Part shown: positions 6,717 through 43,632 of the stretch, one piece after another
Numbering within the stretch: position 1 is the stretch's first letter
How the letters are laid out: every line of letters begins with the position of its first letter
NCBI GenBank assembly: GCA_039621445.1
Contig: CP154954.1
Coordinates: 8,310,634-8,374,633 of the forward strand
Origin: Euglena gracilis
Lineage: Eukaryota
Length of the DNA: 64,000 bases
Reading direction: 5' to 3'
The notes under the pieces: generated by a model
What the model saw: the letters and a program-made list of their open reading frames with translations, nothing else
Databases searched by the model: none
Told to the model about the DNA's origin: nothing
Made by a program: the position numbers and the translations under genes

Positions 6717-7968
6717 CAGGCACCTATGCCAACCGCAGCCGACCGCAGCCGACCGCAGCCGACCGCAGCCGACCGCAGCCGACCGCGGGTTTCAGGACTG
6801 TCATAGGTGGGGTGCCGACCGCAACCGACCGCAGCCGACCGCAGCCGACCGCAGCCGACCGCGCAACTTTTTTTCTAATTGATGTCAATTTTTTAGTGAG
6901 AATGAGGAATTAGGCTCATTTTTATCCCAGATGTTGAGATTTTTCTGGCTCATCTGGCTCATGTTGTCACTTTTGGCCACTTTTGGCCATTTTTGGTCGC
7001 TTTTGTCCCCTTTTGGCCCATTTGTCACCATAATTCACCCATTTTGACCTATTTTGACATTTTTTTTTGGCCACTTTTTCCCCACTTCTTGTAATTTTGG
7101 GCCATTTTGTCCTGCTCTTGGGCCATTTTGTGCCATTTGGGCCATTTTTGACCATTTAAAGCCATTTTCGACCTTTTCTTTTGTTATTTTTGCCATTTTT
7201 TGGTCTCTTTTTGGTCCAATTTGACCATTTTGAGCATTTTGCGCCAGTTTGTTGCCAAAAGTGAACAAAAGCTGCTAAAATGACCCAAATTGGCCAAAAG
7301 CAGGGTCATTTTGGGCCATTTTTGGCTTTTTTGGACCACTTTGGGCATTTTTTTGTTATTTTTGCCTGCTTTTGGAACTTTTGGCCATTTTAACCATTTT
7401 TTGCCACTTTTAGGCCATTTTTAGGTCACGTTTGACTGCTCTTCATGTCAAAAGCAACAAAAAGACGTTTAAGGTGGCCTGAAAGTGGCCAGAAGTGGGT
7501 AAAAATGGCCAACAGCAGAGAAAAGTGGTCAAAAGTGGGTCAAAGAGGGCAAAAGTGGTCAAAAGAGGTCAAAGCAAAGCAAAAGCTGGCCAAAAGCAGC
7601 CAAATCCCAGCAAAAAGTGGGCAAAAGCAACAAAAGTGACCAAAAGAAAGCAAAAGGCAGGAAAAAATGGGCAAAGGCAGCAAAAATCGACCAAAAGTTG
7701 GCAACAGTGGCCAAAAGCAGTCCAAAAGCATCAAAAACTGGCCAAAAGCAGCGAAAAGTGGCCAAAAGTCGGCAACAGTGGATTGTGTGATTGTGATATA
7801 TGCTCATTTTTTGTTGGCCTGCCCCCCACCTACGGCCAACTATTTTGCTGACCGCTGCCGACCGCAGCCGACCGCTGCCGACCGCAGCCGACCGCAGCCG
7901 ACCGCAGCCGACCGCGGCCGACCGCAGCCGACCGCGGGCTAAAATTTGGAATCTGTCATAGGTGCTTG
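6717..7968. mobile_element. Non-autonomous hAT-like (foldback) DNA transposon
   Basis: TIRs CAGGCACCTATG / CATAGGTGCTTG; perfect 8-bp TSD GTCCTGGG (6709-6716, 7969-7976); subterminal GACCGCAGCC 10-mer arrays; internal TTTTGGCC-rich half mirrored by a GGCCAAAA-rich half. Confidence 0.85.
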
Positions 7969-8467
7969 GTCCTGGGCTTCCGTAATGCGCAGATGCGCAT
8001 TTTCATTCAAACTGCCTGATTTTTGTGGCTCAACAAGAAAGGTGCATTCCTTGGCCGTCTAAGTCTTTATTTTTATTTATTTATTTATTTGTTTATTTAT
8101 TTTTGGCGTGTTGTTTTCTGGCCACTGGTGCACACGGGATTTCTTAAGCCGGAGGGGAGCAAGCTGCCCAGCTCACGTATCCCTGCATTTTTTTTTTCCT
8201 CATCACAGCTTCCTCGACCTCAATGTTCAGCCTTGATCTAGGTCCATCCATCAAAATGTCGAGAAGGCAAAATGTTTTAGAAAATTTTGTTTTTTTCATC
8301 GACCCAGCCCTGCACAACCCCCTCCAGCCCCAGACCCCCCCCTCCCCCCCATCCCCCCGGGGGGGGTCCAGCCAGCTGCTCGTTTCCAGCCAGCAGCCTT
8401 TTTTCCAGCCAGAGGCTATCCCCCCCCCCCCGAGTCGCAACATTCTGCTCCCCTTGACCCCCCCCAG

Positions 8468-8590
8468 GGCGGCGCCGGGCGGGTGATGGTCATCGGCAGC
8501 TGCCACATGTTCGAGGACGCGTGGCTGGACAAGGAGGAGAACGCCAAGCTGCAGGAGGTGCTCTTCGACTGGCTGATGCGCTCCCCAAAG
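8468..8590 (+). CDS. IFT52: IFT52 internal exon (first visible exon; 5' exons not in window)
   Basis: cag| GGAGRVMVIGSCHMFEDAWLDKEENAKLQEVLFDWLMRSPK |gtgtgt; matches the IFT52 motif GSxHMFxDxxLDKEEN. Confidence 0.9.
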
Positions 8591-9719
8591 GTGTGTGCAG
8601 GGTGGACCCCCAGGGCAGGGCAGAACGGGAATCGGCCGAACCGCCAGGGTGGTGGGTGGGGGGGGGGTCGACCACCCCCCCCCCCCACCTCTTCCTGTAT
8701 TTCCGGGAGAACCAATTTTTGGACCCGAAAAAATTTTTCGCCTTCGGCGCCGGGTGTTTTTTTGACCCATGTTGGGACCCATACCGGGGCCCCCCCCCCC
8801 CCGAAAACCACCCAAAACCCCATTTTTTCACACCTTTCAAAAATTCGACATTTTCTCAAAATGTTGATTTTGAGAGGTTTTTGAAGCAAAAAAATGCCAT
8901 TGAAAGTCCAAAAAAGTTCAACAAGAAAAAATGTCAGTAAAATTTGATTTGATTGTGCCAAAATGTTGTCCACTTTTTTTGAGCTTCGATTTTTTCACCC
9001 CCCCTCCTGAAAAGTACCAGTTTTCAGGACGGAAAATTTTGAGATTTTTTGTGACAAGCCAATTGTGAGGGACAAAAATTTTATGCGCGGTGTTTGCCCT
9101 GGGCCTGAAATCGGTCACCCGCACTGGCCATTGTTCCCGGGGCCCGACCCCACCTGATTTTATATTGAACCCTGATCCCCCCCAGGTCTCTCCAAACAGC
9201 CGTGCCCACACATCGATTCCGACCGCCTGCAATTTTTTCCGTGTTGGGGGGGGGGAAGGTCAACAGTTGGTTGTGTAATGCTCAAATGCTAAGAGATGCA
9301 CAAGTTTTTGTAAATTGCTGATTGTTAGACTTTTTTCACTGCCTGGATACTTCTGGGTACGGTTCTCTCCCCAACTCTGGCATGGCCTCAGCTGGCGAGG
9401 AGGAGGGTACCATGAGGACAATATGGGGGGGGGTCGACCAGCATCTTTTTCCCAGCTAGCCAAGTCTTCCAGCCGGAATCCTTGGGGAAGCCAATAAGCA
9501 ACTCTGTGGTGCAGAACGGTTGAATTGCCAAAGGAGCTGAAATGTTCACATCCCTTTTCAAGAGTTTCATCGGATCATGGAGGTTTTTTTTTGATGTTGA
9601 AATCCCGGCCAAACTCTCAGTCTGGGCATTTTGCCAAGGCACTCCACTCCGGCGCCGAAAAATGCCCAGAAGAGGCCTTCTTTGGGCCTGTTTCGGGCCT
9701 GTTTCGGGCACGCCAGGCC

Positions 9720-10171
9720 CAGGGTTCGATATAAGGAGGGCGTGCGTGGTTTAGGTGGGGGGGTGTCCCCCCCCCCACCTCCTGGCCCACACAGGGGGAT
9801 CCGGACCGACCCCGGGGGGGGGGATACCCGGGACCCCCAAAAGGTTAATTTTTTCCCCCGGCGCTTTGCGCCGGAGTTTTGGTATTTTTTGTTGCAACAG
9901 CCAAATGTTTTCTTTCGGCTCCCTGCACTGCCAGTTTATTTGCTTGTTCTTTTGCAGCTGATGTCTCGCCAGCTTCCTTTGTTTATGTGCTGCTTGCGCC
10001 TTGATTTCGCTGGATGTCAAACTTTTGGCCTGGCGCTTTGCGCCGGGCCAAAAATCGGTCACCCGGACCGCGCCACTGTTTAGGTGGGGGGGTCCCCCCC
10101 CACCCCTCCCTCCTGGCCCGCAGGGGGGGGGGGTCCAGACCACCCCCCACCTGTCCTTATATCGAACCCTG
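9720..10171. mobile_element. hAT-like MITE in IFT52 intron
   Basis: TIR CAGGGTTCGATATAAGG / CCTTATATCGAACCCTG; 8-bp TSD gccaggcc / accaggcc (7 of 8). Related termini near 9160-9174, 10700-10715 and 18880-19116. Confidence 0.8.
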
Positions 10172-10783
10172 ACCAGGCCCCAGGGATCGATGTTCTGAAG
10201 GTGTGCTGGGAAGAGGAGGGAGGTGTCCCCCATCCCTCCTGGATGGGGGGGGCAGACCACCCCCATGGCCAAATGGGGTCCAAACCGTTTCCTGGGGGTA
10301 CCCGGGACCCCCCAAAAGGTAATAATTTTCTTTCAGGTGCTTCACTTTGCACCAATTTTTTTTAAAAAAATTAACAAATTTTGCCCAAAAAGTGCACTTT
10401 GGGTCGATTTTTGGTCTTGCGCTTTGCGCTGTGACGAAAATTGGTCACCTACACCGTGCTCCTGTTTAGAGTTTAGGGGGCATCCCGGAAAAGGTCATTT
10501 TCAATGAAAATTTTCTTGGTACCCCCGGACTCCACCGGGGGGTGTGCCTGCTGGGGACAGGCACCCTATAGCGGTTCCCGGATCTGGCCTGGGGGGGGGT
10601 AGTGGGCCTACCCTGGGGTCGGCCCAATACGACCCTAGGGTCGCTAAGGTCCCCCCCCCTTTCTGGACAGGAGGAGGGATCTGACCCCCCCACCAGCCTT
10701 TATGTCGAATCCTGGCTGGCCCTCTGAGACCCCTCCCCTCTGGGGTCGGTCAAGGTTCAGCCCGGTCGGGCGTGCTCTCGCAG

Positions 10784-10984
10784 GTCAAGCTGAACCAGAT
10801 CGACGCGGAGGACCCCGAGATCAACGACTACCACTACCTCCCCGACACCCACGCGCTGGCGGAGCGACTGCGGGTCTGCGTGGAGGAGCGGGAGGAGCTG
10901 CCCCGCGACTTCACCGCGATGTTCGACCTGACGATGTTCAAGTTCGACACCAACCTCATCCCGGAGGCGGTGGAGCTGTACAAG
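10784..10984 (+). CDS. IFT52: IFT52 exon
   Basis: cag| VKLNQIDAEDPEINDYHYLPDT...LPRDFTAMFD...EAVELYK |gtgtgg; 201 nt, phase 0/0. Confidence 0.92.
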
Positions 10985-13900
10985 GTGTGGCCGGAGGGGG
11001 GTCTGGCTTATTGTCAATGTCTCAAAAACCTCTTTTGGGATGCTTTTCTTTGTCCAGCACATCCTCAAAAAACGCGACCCAAAAAAACCCGCAAAAAAAC
11101 CGCATGTTGCATATACATTCCCCCTGACCTGCAACCCCCTGGACTGGGGGGTCGTTGTTTAGGGGTGGTCGGTGGGCAAAGGGGGGGGGGTAGGAAAGCT
11201 TTTGGCTCCTCCAGGAAAATTTTCCATTTTGCAAAAATGAGCATATTGTTGACCAAAAAAAGTGCAAAAATGACAAAAAAAATTGACATAATTTTAGGTC
11301 TCAGGGAAAATTAGGACCAAAACGAGGAATTTCAAAGGAGGAGTCAAAAAAAATCTCCCAGCAAAAAAATCCAAAAATCGCCAAGGAAAAAATGCAAAAA
11401 GAATAAAAGAACATAAAAACACAAATTCTGCCAAAATCGAAAAACGGTTAAAAACACAATTTTTTTTTGTGTTTTATCCCCCCTGCTTTAACCCCCCCAA
11501 AAGGATTGTTCCTTTGTGGAAATGCACAAAAGAGCACCAAAAAAACTGAAATGCGAGACTGCTGCCTAAATCCATATGATTTCCTGAACATTATTTTACC
11601 AAGTTTTTGATCCAAGCTGTGCTCTTTGTTGAGGAAAACTTTTGGTCATTGCCAATTGCCAACATTTAAATACATATTAAGAATAGCCTGGGGAAAAAAC
11701 AGCGGCGAACTTGCAAAAAAAACAACAAATTTTGGCAAGATTGAGAAACTGTGAAAAAATGCTTGGAAAAAAGTGCAAAAATGAAAAAAAAATGGAAATA
11801 AGTGAAAAAAAATGGAAAGGTGGTTTGGGCATTGGGGGGGTTGTCATATGCTCATTCTTTTTCAAAACTGTGATTTGCAGGTCATTTTTTTGGCAATTGT
11901 CCGATTTCGCCCCCCCCCCCCCGAGGGAAGGTGGGCTAGCCAGCCCAAATTTCTAGCCCTAGCCCAGCAACCATCCGGGTCTTTACAGAGGTGCATGGAT
12001 CCAACCATTTCATTTTGCAAGTTTACAGCACATTTTCCTTTGGCGTTGCATTTTGGGTCAGGCGAACTTTTTATGTCCTCTCCAGCAGCCGGGGAGCTCC
12101 TAAAGGAACTTACTTGCAACTTGCATTTTTTGCATTGCATATTTTGCGGAGCCTTGCTGCATATTCAGGGGGGTGGGGGTGCGGATTACATCATCCCGCA
12201 TGATCCCACATAATTTGCTTTTTTGGGAAAATTTGAAAAACGAAAGGCCCAGAAAAGCATTCAAAACAAATGCCTTCTGTTTCAGAGATCATTTTGGATC
12301 ATTTTTGGATCATTTTCCCCATAGAACTTACAATTGAGCATTATGCACGGGTGAGAAATTTTGACTGCATAATCCCGCATAAATTTCATGGTCAAAGTCT
12401 GACCCAAAAAAACCCATCAGGCCCCCAGGTGCTTTTTTTTTGTAGTTTCAGACTTCTTCAGTACTTTCTACAGTAAATGCTCTTTTTTCCTCTCACAATT
12501 GCATCCATTTTGTGATTTATCCAATGTTCTTGTTGAATTATCTTCTTAGTTTGTTTGGCTCATTGAAGTGCAGAGGAGGGGGTTGTTGTTTGGCAGTCAA
12601 AGTTGGTCCTGAGAGCGGGAGGTCACCCTACCTTTTCACCTCAAAAATTAGGCTGAAAAATCGAACCCAGCTGGATTTGGGCTTTTTGCCTTTTTTTGGG
12701 GGGGGTGCCGGACCCACCCCTCCGGATCCCCATCTCCATGGGGAGGGGGGATCCAGATATCAGCTTTTTTCAGCCTGGAACCCTCCCCCCCTCTGGTACT
12801 TCAGAAATTCCCTGATCGGGCTTCCTTTTGAGGTACGCGAATACCAACACAAATACCATTTTCTGGGGAAAAAACATCAGCTTTGAGGAAAAAAATACCC
12901 ATGTACACACCATCTATTTCCCAGTTTCTCCATGTGGTTGGTGCACGCATTTGCGCGGACAAACAAGTTTCATTTGTGGGCGCATTTGCGCGCAAGGACA
13001 TGTCATTTTAATTTCGACATTTTGCGTTGTGCGTGCCGACAAACAAAATTTGTTTGTGCGCACAAATGCGCGCACAAACACAGGTCAGTTGCGCGTGTTT
13101 GGCTGGGGAACACATGTAGTATGTTGTGTAATATCCTTTCGTTCCTAACGGGCGGCTGCACCCTGGCCAGTTTGAGGCACCACGTCAGCATCAGTGCCAA
13201 TTGTCGTCACAGTGGGTGTGTGTTTCCCTCCTGTTTGACATCCGAGAGCACCAATCTCATCCTCGGCCCCCTCGCGTCACTCGGTGAGAAACATGTGTAC
13301 CAAACCACCTGGCATTACAGCCCAGTTACAGTTGCAGCCCTCCAATACCGGGTTGCAGCAAAGTCCGAATTTGGTCACTCAAGGTGTCTTAACCTTCTTT
13401 TTAATTACAGCAATTTCCCGTGTTATTTGCAGCACAAATGCAGCAAATCCCGTGCCTGCAATGATCATTTTCGCAATTGCTCACGTGTTCCGTTGTGCAA
13501 TTGCGCAAAGGAACATTTCTTGTTGCGCATTTTCAAAGAGGAACCATTTCCAGGATTGTGGGAACGGTCCGTTTGAGCAGTTGTGCAAATGGAACGTTCC
13601 CGCGGTTGCACCAACAGTCTCTATGTGCAGTTGTGCAACTGGTTCCTTGGCGCGATTGCGCAAAGGAACCCCCAATTTTCTAAAGTCAAAGTGCCATTGT
13701 GCTGGGTTCGGTGTCATCTGCCCTGTTTTTTTCCCCCAACAACATCCCCAGTTGATGAGGCATCCTTTGAAAGATTCCCAAAGACACGTGGTAGGCGCAC
13801 ACAGACGTGCTCCAGGGTACCCTAATTTTCTAATTCCTCATATCTCCCCCTTGCGGTCACCAGACCACATCCCAACCACATTTTATGGGTCGCGTTCCCA

Positions 13901-14561
13901 GTATTAGGGATTTCAGGAACAAGGCACCTTTGCGCAAAGGCACAAAGGAACAAGCCAATGTGTCAAGTGTGAGCGCCGCCGCCTAACTTGGTCCTGTTGA
14001 GTATTTTTTAAAAAGGGGGATTAGTTGGTGGGCAGAGAAAATGTTGCTCAAAAAACCGACCTCAAAATTGCCCGCCGCAAATTATGGCAAATGACATTTT
14101 CCGTGACCCTCAGGCAGGAACCACAATCTTGTAGTTGGTCAAAGACAGTTTGGCGGACCACGCAAACCATGTGCATCCTGGGTGGCAGATGGGAAGCGGT
14201 CGCCGTTCAATAGAAGGTGGGTGTCTGGGGTTTACAGTGTCAAAAATCATGGGAGACAAAAAATACGGAGGGAAAAAACAGGTGGAAATTTATTGGAAAA
14301 TTTTCAAATATGAAAAAAATTTGAAAAATGGTATTTTTAATAATGGGAAAGTTTTAGCTTTTTGAAACCAATGAGGGGACATTTTTGGGGCTCTTTTTGC
14401 AAAGTATTTTTTCGAAATGGATTGGACGGAAGTACCTCGTGCAGTTTAACCACACCCATTTAGACCATGCCACAGCTCGGTTGTGCTCCACTCCTTGGAC
14501 ACTGTCCATACAGGGGGGATCGACTGTGAAAAAAGCTTTCTACCACTCCTCTGCTCTACAG

Positions 14562-14606
14562 AAGCTTGGAGTGAAGCACGAGGCTCTGTCGCTCATCCAC
14601 CCTCAG
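14562..14606 (+). CDS. IFT52: IFT52 exon
   Basis: cag| KLGVKHEALSLIHPQ |gtgtga; 45 nt, fills the expected LxVKHExLxLIxPQ segment. Confidence 0.88.
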
Positions 14607-14704
14607 GTGTGATCTGACCCTCTATGAAATAACTGGCTCGAAGGAACGTCGATGGCAACAGTTGACAGCACCTGCTTGGTCCACTTTTGCGCAATCTCAT
14701 TGTA

Positions 14705-14969
14705 CCCCCCCCCCCTTGTCGTACAACCACCCCTCATTTACGACCACCCCCGGTCACAGGTTGCAGGTCATGGGGTGTTATGACCACCGCCCCCCCGGTC
14801 ACAGGTTGCAGGTTACGAAAATTTTAGCACCATTTTACCAACGGCCGCCCCCTCATTTACGACCACCCCCCGGTGACACAGGTTGCAGGTTATGGGGGTG
14901 TTACGACCCCCCCCCCCCCTGGTCACAGGTTGCAGGAACCCGGTCGTACGACAAGGGGGGGGGGGCGGG
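14705..14969. mobile_element. TA-flanked MITE with internal GGTCACAGGTTGCAGG repeats (Tc1/mariner-like)
   Basis: TIR CCCCCTTGTCGTAC / GTACGACAAGGGGG, flanked by TA at 14703-14704 and 14970-14971; four internal ~16-20-bp repeats. Confidence 0.6.
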
Positions 14970-16243
14970 TAAGTGGAAATTCGCCTGTTTGGAACTCTCT
15001 TGTCCAATGAACATCCCCGGTTGGCATTTGCCATAACTTGTTTTTGGGTGGCCGGCCAGGATTGAAAGTGATGGGTGTCACTGCAGGGTTTGGGGTTCGA
15101 AAAAGGAGGGTGTGCGGGGGTGGCCCCCCCCCCCTCCACAAGAGGTGGGCCCAGACCACAACCTGCCAAGGTGGTCCGGACCGCCCCGGGGCCCTGCCCC
15201 CCAAAAAGGGTAAAGTTTCCCTCTGGCATTTTATGCCAAAAATTTTGGGCATGCTTGACAAATTTCGCCCAAAAAGGTCCCCAAAGAGAAAGGGCATTTT
15301 TGGCCGATTGGGAGGGCAGAACTTTCGGTCCAGCGCTTCGTGCGGACCAAAAATGGGTCAGCCAGACCGTGCCACTGTTCAGGTGGCGTTTCCCCCCCCC
15401 CCACTACTGGACTGGGGGGGCATCCAACCCCCCCCCCCCCCCTGCCCTTATTGCAGGGCCTGAGAAGGTCGGGAAACTCATTTTTGAGGTTTTGCCTGTC
15501 CTAGGATGCCGGAAACCATTTCCCCCCCTGATATCAGCCTCTTTTTTTTGCCAAAATATGGCCATTTTTTGGCAGTTTTTTTGTGAGATTGTCATTGAAT
15601 GTGCTGGGACCAGGGGTCCAGCAAACAGCTCCCAGCCAGGCTGGGGGGGGGGGGTCCACTGAAATAAAGTTTGGGCCAGCGCAGCCACACTGAGCAGAAA
15701 AGGCATGGACACAAAGAACTGGAGAAATATTTTCAAAAAAATGGTGTCAAAATGGCTGAAAAAAATGGTGTTCTTGAAGGTTTTCTGGGTTTGAAGGTTT
15801 TCAAATCCTCAAAGTTTCAGCTGAGAATTTCAGTTCCAGCCCAGCTGGATTTGATTTCCTGCCACAATTTGGGTGCAGTCGGGTCCAGCCTGGCAGCCAA
15901 TTTGACCTCTCCCAATTTGGAACCCCCGCCCCCTGGGGGGGGGTGATCCAGCCAGTATTTTTTTCCCCAGTCAGCACATTTTTTTCCAGTCAGGATGTTC
16001 GCCCCCCCCCCCCAAGAAAACCACTGGCTGACATTTATTTTATATATGCTCAAGTACCCCCCTGCTTTCATGTTGGGGGAAAAAAAACCTGCCCCACCCA
16101 AGTTGGCTGTTTCTTTTTGTATTTCCAACCGGCTCAGCACCACAAGTGACTTCGAGGCGGGGGGGGTGTAACGACAACAACACGTTTCACATTTCAGGCG
16201 GTGGTTTGTTGGTTGCCGATCCTCTCGCCTCCCTCTCCGTCAG

Positions 16244-16295
16244 TTCGAGACCCCACTGCCGCCATTGTACCCTTCGGTGTTTCCGCCCACACACC
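16244..16295 (+). CDS. IFT52: IFT52 exon, followed by a non-conventional intron
   Basis: cag| FETPLPPLYPSVFPPTH+c; IFT52 FETPLP..PxVFPP motif. Confidence 0.85.
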
Positions 16296-17143
16296 GCGCA
16301 AGGCTTGTCAATGTGAAAACATTCCCCTCACTCCCATTCCCTTGTTTGAGAACCCCCATCCCAAAAATGGCCCGAAATGATTTGGGGTCCAAAAATCATT
16401 TAAATCGCTGGAAATGCCTTAAAATGCCTGAAATGGAAATTTCCGTGGCCCGAAATTATTTGCGTTTTTATGACCAATCCTATGTTCAAAGTTTTGTTTT
16501 CATCATGACAATCAGGATGTGTGGTGTGTAGGCTTCTTTTTGAGAAAGATTGTACCCCCTGGGGGGGGGTATTATGGGCAGGCAGGGGGTAGGGCACGTT
16601 CGAGCCCCCCCCCCCCCCCCGGGAGGTTTGGGGGTTTGGCCCCAACCGGCCTCTACCAGCCCCTCTACCGGCGCCGAAGGCTCCAGGGGCCCGAAAATGG
16701 CTAATTTCAAGAGAAGTTTGGACTTTGCCTGGGTTGGCAGGCACCGGGGTCCGACCCCTCCCCCGGGTGTGCCTGTGATGGGCAGGCACCCAATAGCACA
16801 AGGCACCCTCCCTCCCCCCAGGGTTGGTAAAAAGAAGCCGGGTGGTGTGTGGGTGTGTGTGTTTCCTTAGAAGCCAGGTTGAGAAAGAGCTCCTATCCGC
16901 AAGCACCTTAAGTAAGCTTGGGTCAGGTCAGATACAGTTTGTTCTCTGAAATTGAGCAATCAAGCATTTCCCAATTTTGGGCAGTTGATGCACTGATCAT
17001 TTTGTATCTTATTTCCATTGAAAATGTTCCCAAAATTTTTCATTTCCCATATTTTTTTGTTTGGATTATATTGGCGAAAGAGAAGCAATTGTGTCTGATT
17101 CCAAAAGCCCCCAACGGGAACTCTAACGAAGAGCCTTGGCATT
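16296..17143 (+). other. Euglenid-type non-conventional (non GT-AG) intron
   Basis: Ends GCGCAAGGCTT...GAGCCTTGGCATT; +4..+6 CAA pairs with -8..-6 TTG within an 8-bp stem; starts with a purine and ends with a pyrimidine; removal gives in-frame PPTH-R-EPPPPALDLF. Confidence 0.85.
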
Positions 17144-17233
17144 GTGAGCCGCCGCCGCCAGCATTGGACCTCTTTGATTTGGATGAGCATTTCGCCACGG
17201 AGAAGGCGCGGTTGGCATACCTGACAAATAAAT
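17144..17233 (+). CDS. IFT52: IFT52 exon
   Basis: (R)EPPPPALDLFDLDEHFATEKARLAYLTNK+t |gtgtgt. Confidence 0.9.
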
Positions 17234-17756
17234 GTGTGTTTGTTGTGAGTTGGGGGCAGGGGCTACCCCGGGTCCAGCCAGCCAGCCAGCATTTTTTTTC
17301 GGCCAGCACCTCTCAGCCGGGCTGCAGGCCCCCCCACCTGAACCCCCTACTCCCCAGGGGGGGGGGGGGGTCCGGCCAACACCTTTTTCCAGCCAGCACC
17401 TTTTTCCAGCCAGCACCTTTTTCCAGCCGGCCCCCGGGACCCCTCAGGGGTCTTTAAGAAACGCCCTGGTTGCGGGATATTTGATTTAATGGTGTTTGTT
17501 CAAAGATCATTCTATTAATTATGAGACAATATGACAATATGCAAAGCAATTATGTTCTGCCAGTTACCGCTTATTCGCATTTTTCATACCAAAATTTACC
17601 TAAAATATTCGGATTCCTTGGCAAATCTCCCTGTTTTTTTTTTAAATTTGGAATTTTCCGACAACCCACCCACCCACCCATTTCCCTCTCCCCCGACCCT
17701 CATATATGCACACACATCCACATACATCCACACCCACAACCTCAAAACCCCAACCC

Positions 17757-17968
17757 CACACACCACCCACTCACACACCCACACACCCACCCACCCACAC
17801 ACACACGCACCAACCCACCCACCCACCCACACACACAACACAAACGCGCGCACACACACAACACAACACAACACAACACAGCACAGCACAACACAACACA
17901 ACACAACACAACACAACACAACACAACACAACACAACACAACACAACACAACACACACACACACACAC
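17757..17968. repeat. (CA)n/(ACACA)n microsatellite
   Basis: Direct inspection. Confidence 0.95.
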
Positions 17969-18360
17969 CAAGGTGTAAGCTTTAGAGAATTTGACCCCAC
18001 CCCCTGGGTGGTTCAAGCTAGCCAGCAGCCTTTTTCCAGCCCCGGACCCCCTCCCCCCATGAAAAATACCAGCAATAATTAAATAATAAATAAATTCTTT
18101 GTTTGTTTGTTTCCAGCCACCCTTTGGGCGGCTGGAAATAAATGATTTTTGCTTTTGGGGATACAAAAATGGGCAAAAATAGGTCAGATTTGGCCGGCCA
18201 GGAAGAATTTGTGGGTCAAAAAAAAATCGTTTTTGGGCATTTTTGCATTTTCGATTTTTTTTGGTTCCCGGTTCGGCCCGGGGCGGGGGGTCGGCCAGCA
18301 GCCTTTTCCAGCCAGTCCAAGTTTTCCAACCCCCGCGGGGAGTCGTTAAAAAATTCCCTG

Positions 18361-18379
18361 ACACACACACACGCGCACG

Positions 18380-18456
<77 letters not shown>

Positions 18457-18458
18457 GC
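18361..18458. repeat. (CA)n microsatellite
   Basis: Direct inspection. Confidence 0.95.
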
Positions 18459-20056
18459 ATATCCCCCCCCCAAATTCCCCCACCCACACCCACCCACACA
18501 CCCATGGGGATGTATGGGAATTGTGGGAGGTCCCTACCATCACCCCACCCCTGAGGGGTGAGGTGGTGGGGGGAGGTCTGGACCCCCCCCCCTTGGATGC
18601 TGGGAGGGGCTATCCAGACCATGCCATTGCTCAAGGTGCACAATATGCTCAAAATGAGGGAAAACAGCATTTTTTTTGCATTTTCCGGCGCACAGCACAG
18701 CACACAGTGCCGGAAAGATTTTTCGCCATTTTTAGAACCTGCCCAAAGGGGGGGGGGCAGGGGGACCTGGACCCTGCCATTTCTCACTGACCCCCCAGGG
18801 GGAGGGGGTCATTTTCCATTTTCAAAAAACAGTCAGTCACTTTTTTGAAAACCAGTCACCCACTTCCTATCCAGGGGGCGGGCTTCGATGTAAAGGCAGG
18901 TGGGGGGGGGTCAGCCCCCCCCTCTGGTCCACAGGGAGACACCCCCACCTCTACAGTGGAACGTAGAGGTTTCTGGGAAATCAAAAAAAATGCAAAAAAA
19001 TTTCGGCACAAAGCGCCGGAAAGAACAATTTGACCTGTTGGGGGGTCCCAAGTAACTCCCCCTTCCTGGACCGGAGGGGGGAGTTATATCGAACACCCTC
19101 CTTATATCAAACCCTGGGTGGGCACTCAGCCAAAAATGTCCAAAAATCGAAGGATTCTGGCCAAAAACCAAAAAACCCCGGCGGCATGGCCGGGGGATTA
19201 TCCGGAGGCTTCAGCAGCAGGTGGCCATTCCCCCCCCCCGGGAGGTCTGGAGCCAAATACCAGTCAGTCACTCCGAAAAAAAAAACCAGTCAGTCACCGG
19301 GGGTCGGACGCAGTTGATTTGGTGTTTTCCATTTGAATTACAGAGTTTTCAAAACATTCGGGAATTGCAATGGCGTTTTTGGATGTCCAGCCTTTTGACT
19401 GTCCACAGAACCGAAAAGATTTCCGGCCCCATCGCCGTTTTGAGTAGAGGTGGTGGTGTCCGACCCCCCCCCCCCCATAATGGGAGGGGTCCGGACCCCC
19501 CCCCCCCGGGCTTCCCAAGCATTTTTTCCATCCCCTCCAGCTCAAGCACAGCACAGGGGGGCTCAAACGCCATGCAGTCAAGCCTCCTCGGGAGAGGGAG
19601 GCTGCGAACCCTTAAGCAGGAGGGTGACCCAAACATGCAGGGTTAGCTTATTAATTATTCATGGCACCAAATCCTCTGAAATACCCCCCCCCCCGTCCAA
19701 ATTTGGCCAGTGGACATCCAACTGGACCCTCCCCCAGGGGGGGTTCTGCTTGGGGGTGGCTGGTGCATTTTTTTTTGACCCCCCCAAATGGCCAGGAATG
19801 CCCATTTTTGGGCATTTTTAGGGATTTTAGGAATTATTGGAACAAAAAGAAAACAAAATAAATACCATTTCCACCTCGGCACGCAGCGCCAAAGAAAAAA
19901 AATTCCAGTTCAGGGTCCCCGGAGGGGCGGTCTAGCCGGCTGGTGGCTTATTCCAGTGGCTCGTAAAACGGCTACTGGACAATCGTTAAAATTTGTCGAT
20001 GGAAGGTGAGTCCCCTCCCACCCACACCCAACAACACCAACCCTCCCCACCCAACC

Positions 20057-20390
<334 letters not shown>

Positions 20391-20847
20391 CAGGCATTTG
20401 CTTAAGGGATTGCAGTACCCCCCCGGGGGGGGGGCTGGACTGCAGCTAGTCCAAATTTGGCTAGTGGGTTTTCTAGCAGACCCCCCCCCCCCGGGGGGGG
20501 TCTGCTAGCAGGGCTAGCTAGTGGGAAAAATTTTTCCAGTGACCGGCGCGAAGCGCCGAAAATTTTTTTTGGGACCCCCAAAAATGGCCAAAAATGCCCG
20601 TTTTTGGCCATTTTTGGAAATTTTTGGAACAAAATCAGCCAAAAACCTATTAAAAACCTCATTTTTCCTCCGGCGCGCAGCGCCAGAGGAAAATTTTTTT
20701 TTCAGTCCGGGGGACCCCCAGACCCCCCCCCCCCCCCCCCCCCCCCCGGGGGGGAGGGGGGGGTCTAGCTAGTCCACTTTTTCCAGTGTCTAGCCGATTG
20801 GCTAGCCAGTACCCCCCCCCCCCCGGGGGTCCTTAAGCAAAAGCCTG
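20391..20847. mobile_element. hAT-like MITE inserted in a microsatellite
   Basis: TIR CAGGCATTTGCTTAAGG / CCTTAAGCAAAAGCCTG; perfect 8-bp TSD CCACCCAC (20383-20390, 20848-20855). Confidence 0.85.
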
Positions 20848-22010
20848 CCACCCACGCACGCACCCACGCACGCACCCACGAACGCACCCGCGCACCCGCA
20901 CACACACGCACACACACGCACACACACACACACACACCAACACACCACCCACACCCAAACCTCTGCTTGATATATTTTGCCTGATGCCTGATTTTGAGTG
21001 CCAGTGGGTGCAGTCTGGAAGCTGGTGGGACCCCCCACCCCCGGACCCCACCCCCCAAGGGATGGTGTCCAGCCAGCACCTTTCTTCCAGCTTCTTTTCC
21101 AGCCAGCTGGCTAGCTGGACCTCCCTCTCCCATCAAATCTTCACATTTCTTCTGTTTGAAGCGTGGCTGGACGGTAATGGATTTTCTGCTTTTGTGGTCA
21201 ACTCTGGACAAGTGGTCAAAATTGGCCAGAATGATTTTCCCGAAAGGTATGAGGAAAACCAAGTTTGTGGCAGCGAGGGGTTTGGCTTTCAGTTCTTTCC
21301 GAAAGAAGTGTCCATGCTGAAAATTCCCCAATTCCCTGTCTGGAGCAGATGATTCATCAATGGTGCCTTCAACATGGATTATGAGCAAAGAAACAGTTTG
21401 CATTTGATTTATTTGCTTTTGAGGAGGGTCATTTTTTTCAATTGCAAATAAAAGTCAAACTCATTGAAGACACTCTGTCATTTCTGTCTTTTTTGTGAAG
21501 TTTCTGGCGCTGTTGGTGGCAGAGAATTTCAAAAACTAGAGGTCCCCCTGGAGAGGTCGCTTTTTAAAATTGGGGTCGGTTCGGCAAAGCTGGGCTGGAA
21601 ATAATTTCTGTGTCTTGCATTATGCAACATTGGTGTGGAGCCTGTGCTTGTGCCTGTGCGCATTTTTTTTTAATAAAATAACACCAGATATCTTATTTTT
21701 CTGTAGTTTTGGGAATTCACCTGTCAGCCAAATTCAAAAATGACCAAAATTTGATGAAAAGTTTGGTGTCAGATGAATCTGGTCCTGAGCAGGGCAAGTT
21801 GATATCATTTGCCAGAAAAAAAATCTGAACAAGGAACAAAAAGGCCAAAATTTACAAAGTTTTCTATAAGCCAAGTTATGCGATAAACTAACTATCGATA
21901 AGTTGTGAGAAAAACGCTGGCTTTTCACCCCCATCAAGGACTTTTCACCCCCATCAAGTAATGGCCAGAACTCATCCCATCATGAATTGCTTGCCGCTGT
22001 GGATCAACAG

Positions 22011-22117
22011 GTGAGAATGACGATTTGGAGTATTATATATGTGAGGCAGGAGAGGCGCTGGGGGTGACCAAAAAGTTGAAGAAGGACCAGGCCGACAATG
22101 CGAAAGCCATTCTGGAG
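22011..22117 (+). CDS. IFT52: IFT52 exon
   Basis: cag| (C)ENDDLEYYICEAGEALGVTKKLKKDQADNAKAILE |gtgttg; phase 1 matches the previous exon. Confidence 0.9.
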
Positions 22118-23005
22118 GTGTTGTCAGCTCAAATGTTCTATTCCAAACAAATGATTTGGCGGCTGGTGATGAATTTTCACTGATCGCCCTCCAAGTCCTC
22201 CAAATAAGCTATTCATTATTTGAGAGATTTGATGTTTTCGCTATTAATTCTGATTTTTTGCCGTCATTTTGATCGGACTCAGATGGTACCGCTTTTTACC
22301 TTTCTTCTCCTTGTTCTTCCACCTGTTTTTTCCTTCACCTCATTTCAGAAAGGAGGGGGATGTCATTCATCTTTTGTGGGTGATGTCAAAAAGAAAACCT
22401 TGGTGTGGACAAACAGCAGGAGACAAAGATTACAGGGGAAAAAATATGGGGTTATTCAGAAGGGAAAAAAAGATGGACAATTTCAACCATTTGAGAAAAA
22501 ATGCTGGTAATTGATAATTTATTGATTGGTTTCTATTGTTTTTTTTTGTTTTTTGCACATTATTTTGTTTTTTTTTCTTCGGTTGTACCCCCCCCCCCCC
22601 CGTTTTTGCCCACTGACCACCCATACCAAGCGCTCCCTGGTTGGGGGTCAGGGGGGTCAGGGGGGTGCTGATCACCTGAGAGTGGATTTTTTTTGGAACC
22701 TGGTCGTGCAACCAACTCCCTGGTCAGGGGGTGCACCCCCCCCCCCCCGTTGTCAGGGGTTGTTGGGCACCTGGTCGGTGGGCAAGGGGGTGCGGGTTTA
22801 AGGGGGAGAATGGTCAAAATTGTCTTTACAAATGACAAACTATTTGCAATTTAGCAAAAGTCCAAAAAAAAACTGGCCAAAAAAAAACAGCTGGTGGTGG
22901 GAAACACAATTTGATGAACTGATTCATTTGACTCAGGGAATGATCCCTGTCTCCCGAAATTATAGAAGGGCACATCCTGCACCACCACCGCACCGTCTTT
23001 TGCAG

Positions 23006-23128
23006 TACATTTTCAAGCAGATTGTGCAATTTAAGAAACTCAACCACGAGTTCACCCAGAAGGCACCCAAGTCCAAGCCCAACAGCCCTGTGGATGGAAT
23101 GTTCTCGGCAATGGGAGAACATCTGTAA
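23006..23128 (+). CDS. IFT52: IFT52 terminal exon
   Basis: tgcag| YIFKQIVQFKKLNHE...GEHL TAA; IFT52 C-terminal FKKLN motif. Confidence 0.9.
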   Translation, partial: YIFKQIVQFKKLNHEFTQKAPKSKPNSPVDGMFSAMGEHL

Positions 23129-23466: not shown

Positions 23467-24878
23467 TCGTCACTCATTCACTCATTCACACACCCACCCA
23501 TCTTCCCCCTGCTCCCCAGGTCCACAGGAAAATGGGGTCCACAGGATTTTGGGGAGGGGTGAAGAAATTCTACAGGCTGGCGGACTAATCTAGGCGGGGG
23601 GGGGATGCAAACCCAGTTTGTGTGTGTGTGTGTGTGTATTATGTATTTGCATTTTTTGGATAAATTTGCATTTTGGGTTCTTTTTTGTTTTTTTTGTGTG
23701 TTTTTGTGTGTTTTTTGTGTGATTTTTTTTCCAGCAATTTTTGGGATTTTTGCTGACACCTAAAATTTTCTCAAATTTTTGGCATTTTTGCATTCTTTCA
23801 AGTTCTCCCCAGTGAAAAGTGTGCCTCCCGGAGGAGCTCCTGAAGGAATTTTCATGAAATTTGAGTTTGTTTATATTTTTTTGAATTTTATTTTGCGAGG
23901 GTCCATGTTGCATTTCCTCTGCATGTCTGGGTGGGGAATCTGGGGTGAGAGAGGGTCCCACCCACACCCACCCACACGAACACAGCCACACCACCACACA
24001 TACCTCACACAAACATGCACGTGCACACGCGCGCGCGCGCGCGCACACACACACACCCACGCACGCAAGCACTGCTGGAGTGCAAGAACTAGAAGCACTG
24101 GACTGCACGCAAGAACGTCCCCCAAACGCACAAACACCCACACCCACCCACCCCATCCACCTCAAAACATCCACACCCACAAAACCGTCACCCCCCCACC
24201 CCCCACACACATTAATTAGGACGAATTTTTCAGGGTGAAGGGGCGGGTGTTCAGGAGAGCGGGGTGTCCCCGAGGTGTGCTCGACCCATCCCCGCACACC
24301 TGAACGTGGCGTCGCGCTGCCATTTTTTTCAACGGGGCCTAAAATAAGACCCTGTCACCTCCTTGAAGCCTGTCTTTCCTCAGCGGCCATCCTCCGGTTT
24401 GGGCCTTTTTTTTTACTCGCGTTCGGGCTTCCGCCAAGCCTGGGGTTGGCCTCGAGGAGGGCTTTTATGCCAATGAGGTGGGTGCCGCCCGCCGCTCTGC
24501 CCCACAGCTCCAGAGGGCGCTTGGGCCTTCACCTCGTCCCCCGTGGACTTGGTCTCCTCTGGGGCACCTCGGGCTTTGTGCTTCGCTCGTACTCCCTCGA
24601 GGAAAACCGACAAGGGAGGAAGGGACACCGAGGGCGAAGCACAAAGACCTTGTGAGGCCATGCCTTGCTCGCCGGCGGTGTTGTGTGGATTGTGACGCGT
24701 TGGGTTAGGAGTCTCTGCTTAGTGCCGCCTCGCCGGAGTTGGCTGACGATGCTGCTCCGACTGGGCGACGTGGCTTCTTGTCCCTGGGGGGTGTCCCCCC
24801 CCTCCCCCCCCCCTGGCCCCCACTGTCTGACCGAGGGCTTTTGAACACAAATTTTCTTTTACGGGTGGGGGGGTCGGG

Positions 24879-24984
24879 CTCACAAGGTCTTTGTGCTTCG
24901 CCCTCGGTGTCCCTTCCTCCCTTGTCGGTTTTCCTCGAGGGAGTACGAGACACCTCGGGCTCCGCACTTTGCCCTTGTGAGGCC
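24879..24984 (-). repeat. DIRS internal complementary region (ICR)
   Basis: First part is the reverse complement of the 3' terminus (24586-24657). Second part (CACCTCGGGCTCCGCACTTTGCCCTTG) is complementary to the 5' terminus at ~29070-29101. Confidence 0.88.
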
Positions 24985-24989
24985 AGATT

Positions 24990-25930
24990 GTGCACTGAAA
25001 TTAAGGGGGCCAGGGCATTTTCTAAGGCACCTTGGGCACCAAGTCTTTGATAATGGGCTGTAAAAGCCTCCACCCCCCTCCACTAGCCAATTTCGCAAAC
25101 TTCTTGGGCTGAAAGGCCCAATTTTTTGAGTAAACCAACCCCTGCTCCTCTGGTGGAGTGGGCCCCCCACACCTGGGGGGTCACCCCATGCTTGGCCAAA
25201 AAATCTTTTGTGATAGAAGCAATGGTGTCTGCACTTATGGCCCTGAAGGGGGTTTTAATGAAATCAGGAGGGGGCCCCCCGGTCTGACGAATGAACGTGT
25301 GGCAGCCACATAACACATCATTAAATGAAATGGGCTTATTTGGGGACACTGGGGTATGGACACAACCCTTTCCCACTTATGGAATTTCTGTCCTTTACGC
25401 TTAATTTTGATGTAGGGTGCCCTACCCAACACACTGGTGGTTCGTTTGACTTGTGATAAGTCTGAGGATCGGTATAAACAGAGGATTCGTGAGCAAAAAA
25501 TCAGTTGTGTACGCAATGTACAAATATCAGTGGGCATAGGCGCCTTTGCCAGCCCCAGGAGGATTGGGAGGGGGTCCCAAAATGCACCATACTTCTCCAG
25601 GTTTTGGTTCCAAAGCCTCTTGTAGGGGGTTAACAGGGTGTGGAATCTCAGCCCACCAAACCCAGGAATCAAAAGCATTGCACTATATGCATTACGGGCT
25701 TGGGCCTTGGAAAATTGAAATAATTGAATTAAAGCGTCAGCCACCTGGTCTGTGGTGGCTTCAGGGGGGGGCACCCCCATTTTCTCCAAAATAACCCACA
25801 GAAGTGAAAAGGCACTTTGATAACGCCTTAAGCTTGGATTTCTCACCAGGAAATCGTTAATGGTTGCAATTTGTACTTGCTTCCCCTCCAAAATTTTCCT
25901 GAGCAAATCATGCAAAACAGGGGCCATCTG
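24990..25930 (-). pseudogene. DIRS tyrosine recombinase (frameshifted)
   Basis: LYRSSDL in the C-terminal part of ORF 25235..27712, GAHSTRGAG in 25083..25376, and AHY near 25050, in different frames. Confidence 0.85.
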
Positions 25931-27771
25931 GGGGGTGGCATTTGCTCCCCCCTGCAGTTGCTGAACATGCCCTTGTAGGGGGTGATTTTCAGGCAGGGGG
26001 TCCCTGGAACTTTCATTTTTATTAATTGGGGCCACCATGTGGCTGAATCCCAGTAGGGGGTGACCATCAAAACTTTGGTCTGGGGAAACATTTTCAACCT
26101 GGGAAGAAATTGTTGAATTATTGACCAGGGGGGGTTTGCATAAAGATCCCCCATGTTGTCCAGTGGACATTGTAATGCATTTACTGCTGTGGCTTCCCAA
26201 TGTGGCCACCTGGCCACAAAACTGGGCAGTTTTTTGTTGCCTGGGGAGGCAAATAAATCTGTTTCCAGATTTATAAAATCTTTGAATTGCTGTCTGAGCC
26301 ATTGAAAAAGTTGGGGGTCTAAAGAATAATCCCCCCTGTATATTTCCCATCTGCTGATGGGGTCTGCCAGGCCTTCTTTTGAAGGCACCCAGTTGACTTG
26401 GAGGTTTACTTGTTTTTCCATGCACCATTTGAAAAATGGTCTCAGCATTTTGTTGAAGGGGTCCTTTCTGCCCCCACCTTTTGTTAGGTAAAAGTAAATT
26501 ACCTGGTTGTCCACAGACAAAGAAACGGTTTCTCCAGGTTTGCTCAAACTTTTCACAGTGTTGATTGCTGCACTGAGCTCCTTTACGTTGATGTGCAAAA
26601 TGGAGTCCTTTCTCCAAAATTCCTGCACAATTTCTCCTGTGTGGATGTCTAGCCCCCCCCAGGCATGGGTGCTGCTGTCTGAGTGCAATACTCTGGTTGC
26701 ATTGTGGGGGAAGGGTCTGCCCCCCCAGGTGTCCAGCAGAATTTTTATTTCCCTTAATTGGGCCTTGATTTCCTGGGAAATGGGGTGTTTCGAGTCCCAG
26801 GGGGCTGTGGACTTTGCCACCAAAAATTTTGCCAGGGCATCCGTAAAAGCCCTTAAAAAGGGCAGGGCCATTAGGTTGCATCTTATTTGGCCCAAAATGG
26901 CAGCCAATTGCCTTTTTGACATGTAATCTTTTTTCACAATTTTTCCCAGCTCCTTTTTTATGGTTTTGATTTTCTGGGGGGGCACCTGCAACTTTCCCTC
27001 CTGGAAGTTCAATTGAAAACCCAGATGGGTTACCACTTGGGTGGGCTGGAGGGTGGACTTTTTCACATTGATTTTGAATCCAGAATCCAGCAAATCGTTG
27101 ACAACTGTTTTCAGGTGATTTTGTAAAATGTTCTGGGTGGGGGCCACCAGCAAAATGTCGTCCAGGTAAATAAACACCTGGATGCCCCTTTTTCTCCACA
27201 GTTTTTCGAAGGTTTTCATCACTGACATGAAAATTTGGGGCATTACATTTAGCCCAAAGCAGCCTGTTTGAAATTCCCAGGTCTGCCCCCCTATCTGATG
27301 CCTTAAAAAGGGCCTTAGGCCTGGACTTACTGGAATATGAAAATAGGCATCTTTCAGGTCTATTTTTGCTGCCCAGTGGCCTTTTTCCAAAACTGGAAAA
27401 ATGTGCTGGACATGATCCAGCTTGAATGGTTTTACTTGAAACTGCTGATATATTTCTCTGCAGTCGCTGATCATTCTCCATTTGGTTGTTCCCCCTTCTG
27501 GTTTTGAAATTAAAAACCATGGGATCAAATGTTGGGTTTCTGAATCCCAAACTCGTTTCACTGATCCAGTTTTTTCGTAATCCTGCAGAATTTTTTCTGC
27601 CTGGTTCAGGTCTAGGTTGGCTCTGGGTTTTGGGTGGGTGGACAATTTTGGGGGATTCACCCATGGGGGTTGAATTCCCTTTTTTATCAATTGACATGTT
27701 GCTGGGGGGCATTTTTTGTCCACCATTTTAGACTTTTTTGAAGTCTGTGGTACAGGGGGGTGTCTCCCCAT
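25843..27771 (-). CDS. DIRS pol: reverse transcriptase, RNase H and N6-adenine DNA methyltransferase domain
   Basis: Uninterrupted 642 aa: KIDLKDAYFH, CFGL, YLDD (RT); SDSS..WG, HINVKEL, VDN, ADPISR (RH); DLFAS..N and YANPPW (DAM-like). Confidence 0.93.
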   Translation of the reverse strand: MGRHPPVPQTSKKSKMVDKKCPPATCQLIKKGIQPPWVNPPKLSTHPKPRANLDLNQAEKILQDYEKTGSVKRVWDSETQHLIPWFLISKPEGGTTKWRMISDCREIYQQFQVKPFKLDHVQHIFPVLEKGHWAAKIDLKDAYFHIPVSPGLRPFLRHQIGGQTWEFQTGCFGLNVMPQIFMSVMKTFEKLWRKRGIQVFIYLDDILLVAPTQNILQNHLKTVVNDLLDSGFKINVKKSTLQPTQVVTHLGFQLNFQEGKLQVPPQKIKTIKKELGKIVKKDYMSKRQLAAILGQIRCNLMALPFLRAFTDALAKFLVAKSTAPWDSKHPISQEIKAQLREIKILLDTWGGRPFPHNATRVLHSDSSTHAWGGLDIHTGEIVQEFWRKDSILHINVKELSAAINTVKSLSKPGETVSLSVDNQVIYFYLTKGGGRKDPFNKMLRPFFKWCMEKQVNLQVNWVPSKEGLADPISRWEIYRGDYSLDPQLFQWLRQQFKDFINLETDLFASPGNKKLPSFVARWPHWEATAVNALQCPLDNMGDLYANPPWSIIQQFLPRLKMFPQTKVLMVTPYWDSATWWPQLIKMKVPGTPCLKITPYKGMFSNCRGEQMPPPRWPLFCMICSGKFWRGSKYKLQPLTISW

Positions 27772-28975
27772 TTTTCCTCCATGGAATTTATTTCCAAATT
27801 AGATGATTTTCTGGGAGTTGGGTGGGGGGTGTTGGACATTGCACCCCTGGTGCCCCTGGGGAATGAGCTTTCTCTAAAGGTGGCTGGGGGGGTGTGCATG
27901 CTCTGCTCACAGTCTCTCTGATTCTCCACTTTGTCATTGGTGTTGTCGATTGACATACCATAGGGGCCCCTTTTTGGGTCTCCCCCTTGTTTTGGTTTGC
28001 CCCTGCCATGGGCACTGACAAAGAATGTTGAGGGGGGGTTGCCCCCTTGTCCTCCACTGCCCCTGTGGGGGCATCCTCCTGGGGCTGCCACCGTACATTT
28101 AAACCCCCTGCTGGGGGACAGCTTTTTAGCTTCTGGGGGTTTCCCCCTTCTGATAATTGATGGCCCCATTGGCCTTGAAATTGTTGATGATGGAGTTGAT
28201 AATTCTGGCCCCACTGGCCCTCTTGTTGTTTGGATAGTCCCCATTGACTTCTCTTTGATCTTGGGCGCCATGCCCATTGATAATCTTGGGGGGCCTCTGG
28301 GGGCCAACCCTTTTCCCCTGATGGGGTTTGAGATGATGAATTGGGTGGGGGGGTGTTGTGGACCTGTCCTGCCCCTGCCACTGGGCATCTGTTTGTGGAA
28401 TCGGCCACCATGGCCTTGGTAATGTTGGCCACCCTGGCCTTGATATTGCTGGCCGCCCTGGCCTTTGTCCCATTGGCCACCATGGCCTTTGCTGTTGTGG
28501 CCGCCATGGCCCAGCTTGCTGTTTTGGCCGCCATGGCCCAGCTTGAACAATGTATTGGTGTAACTGGGATATGGGCCTCCATGGCCCTTGCCGTTATGGC
28601 ATGACAGTTGCCTTGGCCTTGGTGTCCGTCGGGTTTTTCTGACCACTGTCTGCCAAAGTCTGTGGCTGTCACTGGGTGGGTTTTTAGAAACTTTTTCTGG
28701 GGGGGAAGGGACAGCCACGGTTCGCCACGGTTGCACTGCGCCGTCAGGTCGTCCAGCTGTGGCTGCAGGAAGTTCTTCTTGTTCAGCAACGGTCTTCTTT
28801 GTGTTGTCAATTGCATTTCTCATTGAAATCTTGTTGTGTCAACAAAATTGGATTTGATATTCTCCACGAGTGTCACTTTCTGGATAATTCGATTGATTCA
28901 ACTCTTTGATATTCAACTGTCAAGCTTCTTGAATTGAAGTTCCTTTCTTCTGGGTTGTCGAAGGGCAAATTAAGA
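27690..28975 (-). pseudogene. DIRS gag-like ORF1 (disrupted)
   Basis: Lies between the 5' ITR and pol; homologous to the + strand copy at 30095-31320 (FPFDPEERSFN / LPFDNPEERNFN). Confidence 0.6.
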
Positions 28976-29164
28976 ATCAGCCAACTCCGGCGAAAAAAGG
29001 CACTAAGCAGAGACTCCTAACCCAACGCGTCACAATCCACACAACACCGCCGGCGAGCAAGGCATGACCTAACAAGGGCAAAGTGCGGAGCCCGAGGTGT
29101 CCCTCGGTGTCCCCTCCTCCCTTCCTGGTCTGCCTCGAGGGACCTCGGCGAACAAGGCATGGCC

Positions 29165-29500
29165 TCACAATGGCAAAGTGCGGAGCCCGAGGTGTCTCCG
29201 CCACCTCGGGCGCCGCTTCCAAGAGGCTCTGTAGGGGGCAAAATCGGCCTTCAGTAAGTCCACGCCGCTGATCTGGAACAGCCGCTTTGATGCTTTTCCT
29301 GTCGACAAACCTGCTCCAGTAAACTTCAATCCAGCGTGCAAGATGGCGATGACGACGTTCTTCTCCAGGTCGTGTAGCATCCTTAGTTGCTCCAAGTTGA
29401 AAATGAACTCGGTCCACGATTGTTCGAAGAGCGGTCCTTCCTCGGTGAGCTGGGCAATGTGATTATTCTCCACGTCCATCTTGCATTGGATTGATTGCAA
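29165..29500 (-). CDS. Unknown ORF fragment, probably from a further truncated element
   Basis: Non-repetitive, protein-like 111-aa ORF between the two DIRS copies; no motif recognised. Confidence 0.25.
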   Translation of the reverse strand: MQSIQCKMDVENNHIAQLTEEGPLFEQSWTEFIFNLEQLRMLHDLEKNVVIAILHAGLKFTGAGLSTGKASKRLFQISGVDLLKADFAPYRASWKRRPRWRRHLGLRTLPL

Positions 29501-43471: not shown

Positions 43472-43632
43472 TGAAACAGGGGCGGCGCCGGGGTGGGGGC
43501 TCTCTTCTCAATCCACAGCTTTTCTGCCGCCCGACCCCGGGCCCCCTGTTTGGCTGGCTTCGGCTTCGCCTTGGGTTTTGCCTTTGCCTTGGGCTTTGCC
43601 TTCCGCCCCATTGGCAGGCCAATTCTACTTCA

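Follow-up and report, generated by a model that had tools for sequence, protein, structure and literature searches.

A nonconventional intron in the IFT52 gene of Euglena gracilis is likely an old hAT-type MITE insertion

The nonconventional intron of the Euglena gracilis IFT52 gene is likely an old insertion of a hAT-type MITE, and splicing would remove the element together with one 8-base duplication and thereby give back the coding sequence as it was; we put the probability of this reading at about three in four. The intron itself is real: RNA confirms 16296..17143 as a euglenid nonconventional intron. As evidence for a transposon origin the single locus is weak. That this particular intron arose as a hAT-type MITE insertion is nevertheless probable from the behaviour of the class to which it belongs, and hAT MITEs are very likely a major source of euglenid nonconventional introns.

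Results

The window is the whole stretch of DNA analysed here, 64,000 nt of the forward strand of contig CP154954.1 (8,310,634-8,374,633; assembly GCA_039621445.1), and positions below are in window numbering. It contains the 3' half of IFT52 on the plus strand (8468..23128), with seven exons (8468-8590, 10784-10984, 14562-14606, 16244-16295, 17144-17233, 22011-22117 and 23006-23128) that were placed with RNA joints, Pfam matches and a transcript-derived protein; the 5' exons are located upstream of the window. Pfam matches identify the gene as IFT52, and the transcript-derived IFT52 protein EG_transcript_9433 is 100% identical across the queried exon. With its help the gene structure could be resolved into 12 introns, 11 of the GT-AG type and one nonconventional. 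Searches of the genome (2.37 Gb, 46 contigs) revealed two more copies of the locus, 96% identical across the first query.

Several other features of the locus were observed. The G+C content at third codon positions of IFT52 is 0.98-0.99 in the first two exons and 0.63-0.73 in the last five (8468-23128). A 151-bp satellite array (395-5860) lies within the 13-kb GT-AG intron and is far longer in the two sister copies, one of which has a repeat unit of about 160 bp. At 24500-31400, long inverted repeats (27890-31321) lie next to a decayed minus-strand stretch that resembles reverse transcriptase, in which a YLDD motif was seen by eye near 27150-27175; this region may be a DIRS-like retroelement that carries an inverted duplication. 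Further downstream (39804-43632), a 161-nt inverted repeat (97%) bounds a 3.5-kb segment with coding-like stretches.

RNA reads from about 5% of each raw run were aligned to 8300-17650, and the strongest joints were listed. Exon 16244..16295, placed with RNA joints and protein, is connected to exon 17144..17233, placed with RNA, protein and a partial Pfam match to Itf52_C below the cut-off. The joint 16295|17144 was covered by 79 reads in run X23, 77 reads in run X24 and one contig in X11; run X15, which is likely DNA, had 0 reads at this joint. Three GT-AG joints upstream of the nonconventional intron were likewise supported by RNA. The residues THRE span the joint in seven of the nine closest homologues listed, and THRE or THRD in eight of them.

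The 848 nt removed from the plus strand start with GC and end with TT, are slidable by 1 and consist of an 840-nt stem-bounded core plus 3 and 5 nt. The left stem arm CAAGGCT (16299..16305), a putative decayed terminal inverted repeat (TIR), pairs with the right arm AGCCTTG (17132..17138) in a short stem of only 7 bp, all Watson-Crick pairs, with partial pairing beyond; the full intron folds with both ends together (z -2.4, 20 shuffles). The donor spacer is GCG (3 nt), the acceptor spacer GCATT (5 nt), and the downstream exon begins with G; thus, the RNA joint gives exactly the distances of 3 nt and 5 nt between paired ends and splice sites that had been claimed from the sequence. With ends that are neither GT-AG nor GC-AG, with these spacers, a purine at exon position +1 and a terminal stem, the intron has the features of the euglenid nonconventional type. 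Its ends CAA..TTG fail the CDG..CH'G code but fit the CA/TG core.

The 8-mers flanking the stem are putative copies of a target-site duplication (TSD), a status that derives from the class test described below. The left one, ACACCGCG (16291..16298), comprises the final 5 nt of the exon, which would be positions 1-5 of the duplication, and the donor spacer; the right one, GCATTGTG (17139..17146), comprises the acceptor spacer and the first 3 nt of the next exon. Stem arms, coordinates and 8-mers were found as the first-pass annotation had given them, with 4/8 identical positions and four differences that are all transitions. An identity of at least 4/8 is reached by 26% of mismatched donor/acceptor pairs, and the 4/8 of the IFT52 intron is therefore not significant. 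A purine/pyrimidine match at 8/8 positions, as seen here, occurs in 1.2% of mismatched pairs, a mildly unusual value for a measure chosen post hoc. An ancestral 8-mer can be constructed that would make all four differences GC-to-AT changes, of which two are synonymous; this construction, also post hoc, was not counted as evidence.

Genome searches with the intron ends returned matches only in the gene's own three copies and no repeat family, and a 14-mer pattern of the ends had 6 matches in the genome, with about 18 estimated by chance. The ends are low-copy; only a nested interior segment (16650..16850) is repeat-derived, as judged from local BLAST coverage, read depth and genome searches. 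An empty site for the intron was not found, both sister copies being filled. With no related sequence outside the gene's own three copies and no empty sister copy, the intron must be old if it is a MITE. Among 351 nonconventional introns of dynein genes (see below), its CAA/TTG end type is present in only three. The earlier description of the intron as a decayed hAT MITE thus gains its 3+5 geometry from RNA, while the similarity of the 8-mers is at chance level and the searches yielded neither a family nor an empty site. A hAT family starting with CAAGGCT was considered as the parent of the intron and rejected, with a 7-bp TSD and a different right end.

The expectation that donor and acceptor of nonconventional introns resemble each other from -5 to +3 was borne out in a sample of 19 dynein heavy-chain gene regions of 40-50 kb each, which represents one gene family in one genome. 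Protein searches found no E. gracilis dynein protein, and the dynein junctions were predicted from protein profiles with a spliced aligner whose scores for nonconventional introns ignore the spacer letters. Tested against RNA joints with a profile built from 45 less closely related IFT52 homologues, the aligner placed three of four joints exactly, including that of the IFT52 nonconventional intron, and one GT-AG acceptor 6 nt off. Pass 2 yielded 967 gap-free junctions. The flank-score filter retained 853 of them: 334 conventional ones, 398 with 3+5 spacers (a stem being present in 351), 39 with 3+6 spacers (24 of them stem-bearing) and 82 that were signal-free.

In the 351 predicted nonconventional introns, donor and acceptor are more often identical than in permuted pairs at all eight positions of the interval -5 to +3 (z 3.0-6.3), and there is no excess at 19 positions outside this interval, six of which are set by the motif. 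The mean identity is 3.54 of 8 against 2.69 (2.71 when permuted within genes), which was reached in 0 of 5000 permutations. Eight introns are identical at 8/8 positions where 0.1 were expected, and 14 at 7/8 where 0.9 were expected; the excess persists in the 329 introns under 7/8 (3.29 vs 2.67) and is replicated by the 217 introns that were new in pass 2 (3.45 vs 2.70). The 334 GT-AG controls showed no excess (4.10 vs 4.07, exceeded in 1164 of 5000 permutations). Shuffling the spacers in 11 of the 19 genes left 258 of 259 calls the same yet lowered the mean to 2.77, and thus the aligner does not create the 8-nt signal. Removal of the element plus exactly one 8-bp TSD, as the first-pass annotation had suggested, is hereby supported as a property of the class.

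The signal is weak in the 24 stem-bearing introns of the 3+6 type (3.25 vs 2.73 across nine positions, 91 of 5000 permutations), and in the weaker-flank set of pass 1 (n=35) the mean is not significantly raised (3.00 vs 2.82, p=0.19). Of the 82 signal-free introns 63 bear a stem, and 8 is the commonest spacer sum among these (19/63). Base pairing from spacer to spacer was considered as the cause of the signal and rejected, no excess being seen. On average about 16% of the 8-nt identity is retained in the predicted dynein introns, a value that does not fix the share of introns with a hAT MITE origin; retention is higher at third codon positions, contrary to expectation (0.21 vs 0.14 and 0.11). 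On the exon side, the 351 introns favour T at -4 (0.29 against 0.15) and A at +2 (0.46 against 0.23), which resembles the target sites of MITEs. This target pattern, nTnnnnAn, marks the Ac branch of hAT. The intronic spacer bases are skewed to G/C relative to the mirrored exon bases, which suggests a biased decay of the duplication.

Introns with an identity of 7-8/8 should be young, and 12 of these 22 have ends in common with other repeats in the sampled DNA, compared with 8 of the 329 introns below. Three young predicted dynein introns (L039:7655-7910, L103:8747-9219 and L064:1654-1918) match dispersed CAGG-ended MITEs end to end, with matches that stop at the stem ends; the whole intron is in each case a copy of a dispersed TIR family with a TSD. 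In the genome-wide searches for copies, the best 40 of 3307, 3082 and 1077 candidates were scored, and a TSD of 7-8/8 was present in 20/27, 12/27 and 15/17 copies of the three families, some of which are sister copies of one insertion. Repeats of lengths from 2 to 12 other than 8 were at background around these copies. The predicted ends of the three introns are nonconventional and not of the GT-AG type. Colinear in-frame joins, lengths that are not divisible by 3, the presence of two of the introns in all copies examined and the fit to the published code suggest that they may be spliced as predicted. No parent transposase emerged for the three MITE families, and the dynein insertions were presumably moved by hAT transposases.

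Two of the three introns are present in all gene copies examined. The other one is absent from one of four gene copies, where a single 8-mer remains as an exact empty site; in this copy the five introns that follow are kept, as is the end of the one before. Intron gain is a simpler reading of the empty site than exact loss. A comparison with another gene copy was possible for 81 of the 351 introns (18 of them young), and the intron was missing in two cases, once from a sister copy and once from a paralogous gene. The latter case concerns L110-L113 (offset 19710), where a predicted nonconventional intron (5/8) is absent from the same site in the paralogous gene copies L233 and L235.

The three MITEs described earlier in the window exist, and all of them lie inside GT-AG introns of IFT52, none being itself an intron. 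The MITE at 6717..7968, within the 13-kb intron, has the TIRs CAGGCACCTATG / CATAGGTGCTTG and the TSD GTCCTGGG (8/8), and one sister copy has an empty site with a single 8-mer left. Its 12-nt ends agree at 11/12 and 12/12 positions with the ends of a nonconventional intron of 77 nt predicted elsewhere. The MITE at 9720..10171 has a 17-bp TIR, a TSD of 7/8 and other copies elsewhere. The third (20391..20847) has the TSD CCACCCAC (8/8), but this lies inside a microsatellite; the MITE was not found in the two sister copies of the locus. None of the three is related to the IFT52 intron, and the statement that both ends of the process appear in one locus was therefore too strong.

The MITE at 20391 shares both ends with L214, with an identity of 91% across 185 nt and of 95% across 114 nt. 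L214 is a CAGG-ended element of 2940 bp that has a hAT dimerisation domain (PF05699, E 7.6e-10), and its 8-bp TSD is perfect. The profile search with PF05699 gave a match in all 150 best of 1518 candidates, and 20 regions were then examined. These 20 regions include L214 and three CATAG-ended elements of 3.0-3.6 kb, which likewise combine a hAT dimerisation domain with a perfect 8-bp TSD. CAT/ATG occurs as an end type among introns as well (12 of the 351 dynein nonconventional introns). One of the CATAG-ended elements, L198:4357-7703, and its relatives L199 and L200 make up a young hAT family of full-length copies, with CATAG..CTATG ends and perfect TSDs of 8 bp. Flanking repeats of 7 nt were seen by eye in 12/15 of the other hAT-domain regions. 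These families with a 7-bp TSD (L201-L209, L211, L212 and L217) have ends such as TAAGGTT, CAAGGCT and CAGGGTT and copies up to 99% alike, and they offer a natural control for the intron model. A census of TIRs made without motif assumptions detected 63 elements with perfect flanking repeats; 25 of these repeats were of 8 bp, and 17 of those 25 elements start with CAG. CAAG ends like that of the IFT52 intron are known on MITEs with an 8-bp TSD, namely at the right end of the MITE at 6717 and in one element of the census. The proposal that hAT MITEs generate nonconventional introns is thus supported by the introns that belong to MITE families, by one empty site and by the ends that L214 shares with a MITE of the window.

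Discussion

Based on these data, an intron could arise as follows. A hAT transposase would insert an element with CAG..CTG ends and duplicate 8 bp, an insertion pattern seen for the MITE families of this genome, with the enzyme as the presumed part. The terminal inverted repeats would then pair in the pre-mRNA, and the nonconventional machinery would cut 3 nt before and 5 nt after the stem. For the IFT52 intron this cut geometry is given by the RNA junction, and 3+5 is the published code. Such a cut would retain bases 1-5 of the left copy and bases 6-8 of the right copy and hence, by the arithmetic of 5+3, restore one intact target site, which matches the empty site. Later the intronic halves of the duplication and the body of the element would drift with the stem alone being kept, a step that is visible statistically for the class and that we assume for the IFT52 intron.

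Repair of a double-strand break also leaves short direct repeats, and the IFT52 intron might be such an insertion with a chance stem. An 8-nt repeat at the recently gained gapC intron has been published and was interpreted as break repair (PMC4770533), and the IFT52 intron has no repeat family. We nevertheless regard this origin as very unlikely: break repair would not set a length, yet the excess begins abruptly at -5 and ends abruptly at +3, the young introns are complete copies of dispersed TIR families, and the published 8 nt equal the hAT length. It is even less likely that the similarity of the ends is selected for slip-tolerant splicing, or that the 3+5 code predates the transposons and is exploited by pre-adapted hAT families. 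In PMC12501133, 84% of the introns can slide and splicing tolerates an acceptor spacer of 5-6 nt, and the present data do not order the origins of code and elements. However, synthetic and transplanted introns without the repeat are spliced (PMC12501133), so the repeat is not needed for splicing; in addition, GT-AG introns show no excess, and selection leaves the membership in MITE families and the empty site unexplained. Pre-adaptation as such is compatible with the hAT MITE origin of the young introns.

The strongest competitor, although still improbable, accepts that hAT MITEs make such introns and derives the IFT52 intron from another source, for example a GC-AG or GT-AG intron that gained a stem, with the 4/8 match due to chance. 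The intron starts with GC, has the off-code ends CAA/TTG, is the sole nonconventional one among the 12 introns of IFT52, and its 4/8 match is what chance would give. Against such a conversion stand the RNA joint without an AG acceptor, the exact 3+5 register, a full purine/pyrimidine match for which the chance expectation is about 1%, and the occurrence of CAAG ends on MITEs with an 8-bp TSD. Insertion of a hAT-type MITE remains our preferred origin for the IFT52 intron.

A MITE origin of nonconventional introns has been proposed in general terms in PMC3935182 and repeated in PMC12501133, and is thus already published; TSD-like repeats at these introns have been noted as well (PMC11282704). 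The class-level hAT mechanism presented here is well supported. The accessible text of PMC12501133, PMC3935182 and PMC11170887 names no superfamily and does not tie 3+5 to the length of a TSD, and no link between the 3+5 spacers and the 8-bp TSD of hAT elements was found in the literature searched; subscription papers and supplements may bear on it. Nonconventional introns make up about 70% of the introns in E. agilis, and the code 5'-N3CDG..CH'GN5-6|R was described with CDG..CH'G in 61% of them (PMC12501133), next to a CA/TG core (PMC3935182) and a CCAGG/CCTG consensus (PMC11170887). The IFT52 intron resembles the introns of these three studies in its non-GT-AG ends, terminal stem, 3- and 5-nt spacers and the purine at the exon start, but shares only the CA/TG core of the end code. 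Nonconventional introns have been described as excised in the form of full-length circles (PMC11282704), and the noncanonical introns of diplonemids have paired ends, too (PMC12621601).

MITEs of the hAT superfamily have an 8-bp TSD and TIRs of 5-27 bp (PMC3517528). The MITEs of the window and the three dynein introns are similar to them in their short CAGG TIRs, the 8-bp TSD and the many copies, whereas the IFT52 intron lacks similarity to a family and would have lost half of its putative TSD. Unlike hAT MITEs in general, exonic copies in Euglena are predicted to be excised exactly by a route other than GT-AG. The introners of Micromonas, Fritillaria, Amoebophrya and Polarella (PMC11282704) are also MITE-like transposons that become introns and leave the mRNA unchanged by means of the TSD. 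Those introners use or co-opt spliceosomal signals, while in Euglena no splice dinucleotide would be needed and the TIR stem would be the signal; moreover, both TSD copies would be cut internally, and one code would be fed by a multitude of unrelated families. With their predicted nonconventional ends, the three young dynein introns would work like introners outside the spliceosomal introner families.

The hAT reading names the donor superfamily and explains the otherwise arbitrary spacers of 3 nt and 5 nt. Several ages of the elements are visible, from the element with a transposase through the MITE and the polymorphic intron to the decayed intron. Simple tests follow from it, as well as means to place ambiguous junctions and to date introns, and Euglena would offer an example of introns gained without any spliceosomal signal. 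Somewhat better than even, in our judgement, are the chances that the nonconventional splicing code as a whole is a footprint of hAT transposition, with CAG..CTG as the hAT end, 3+5 as the 8-bp duplication and the purine at the exon start partly as a target preference. The excision machinery would then be an RNA-level system that renders 8-bp hAT insertions silent and is the source of most introns of the organism, with the families that have a 7-bp TSD shut out.
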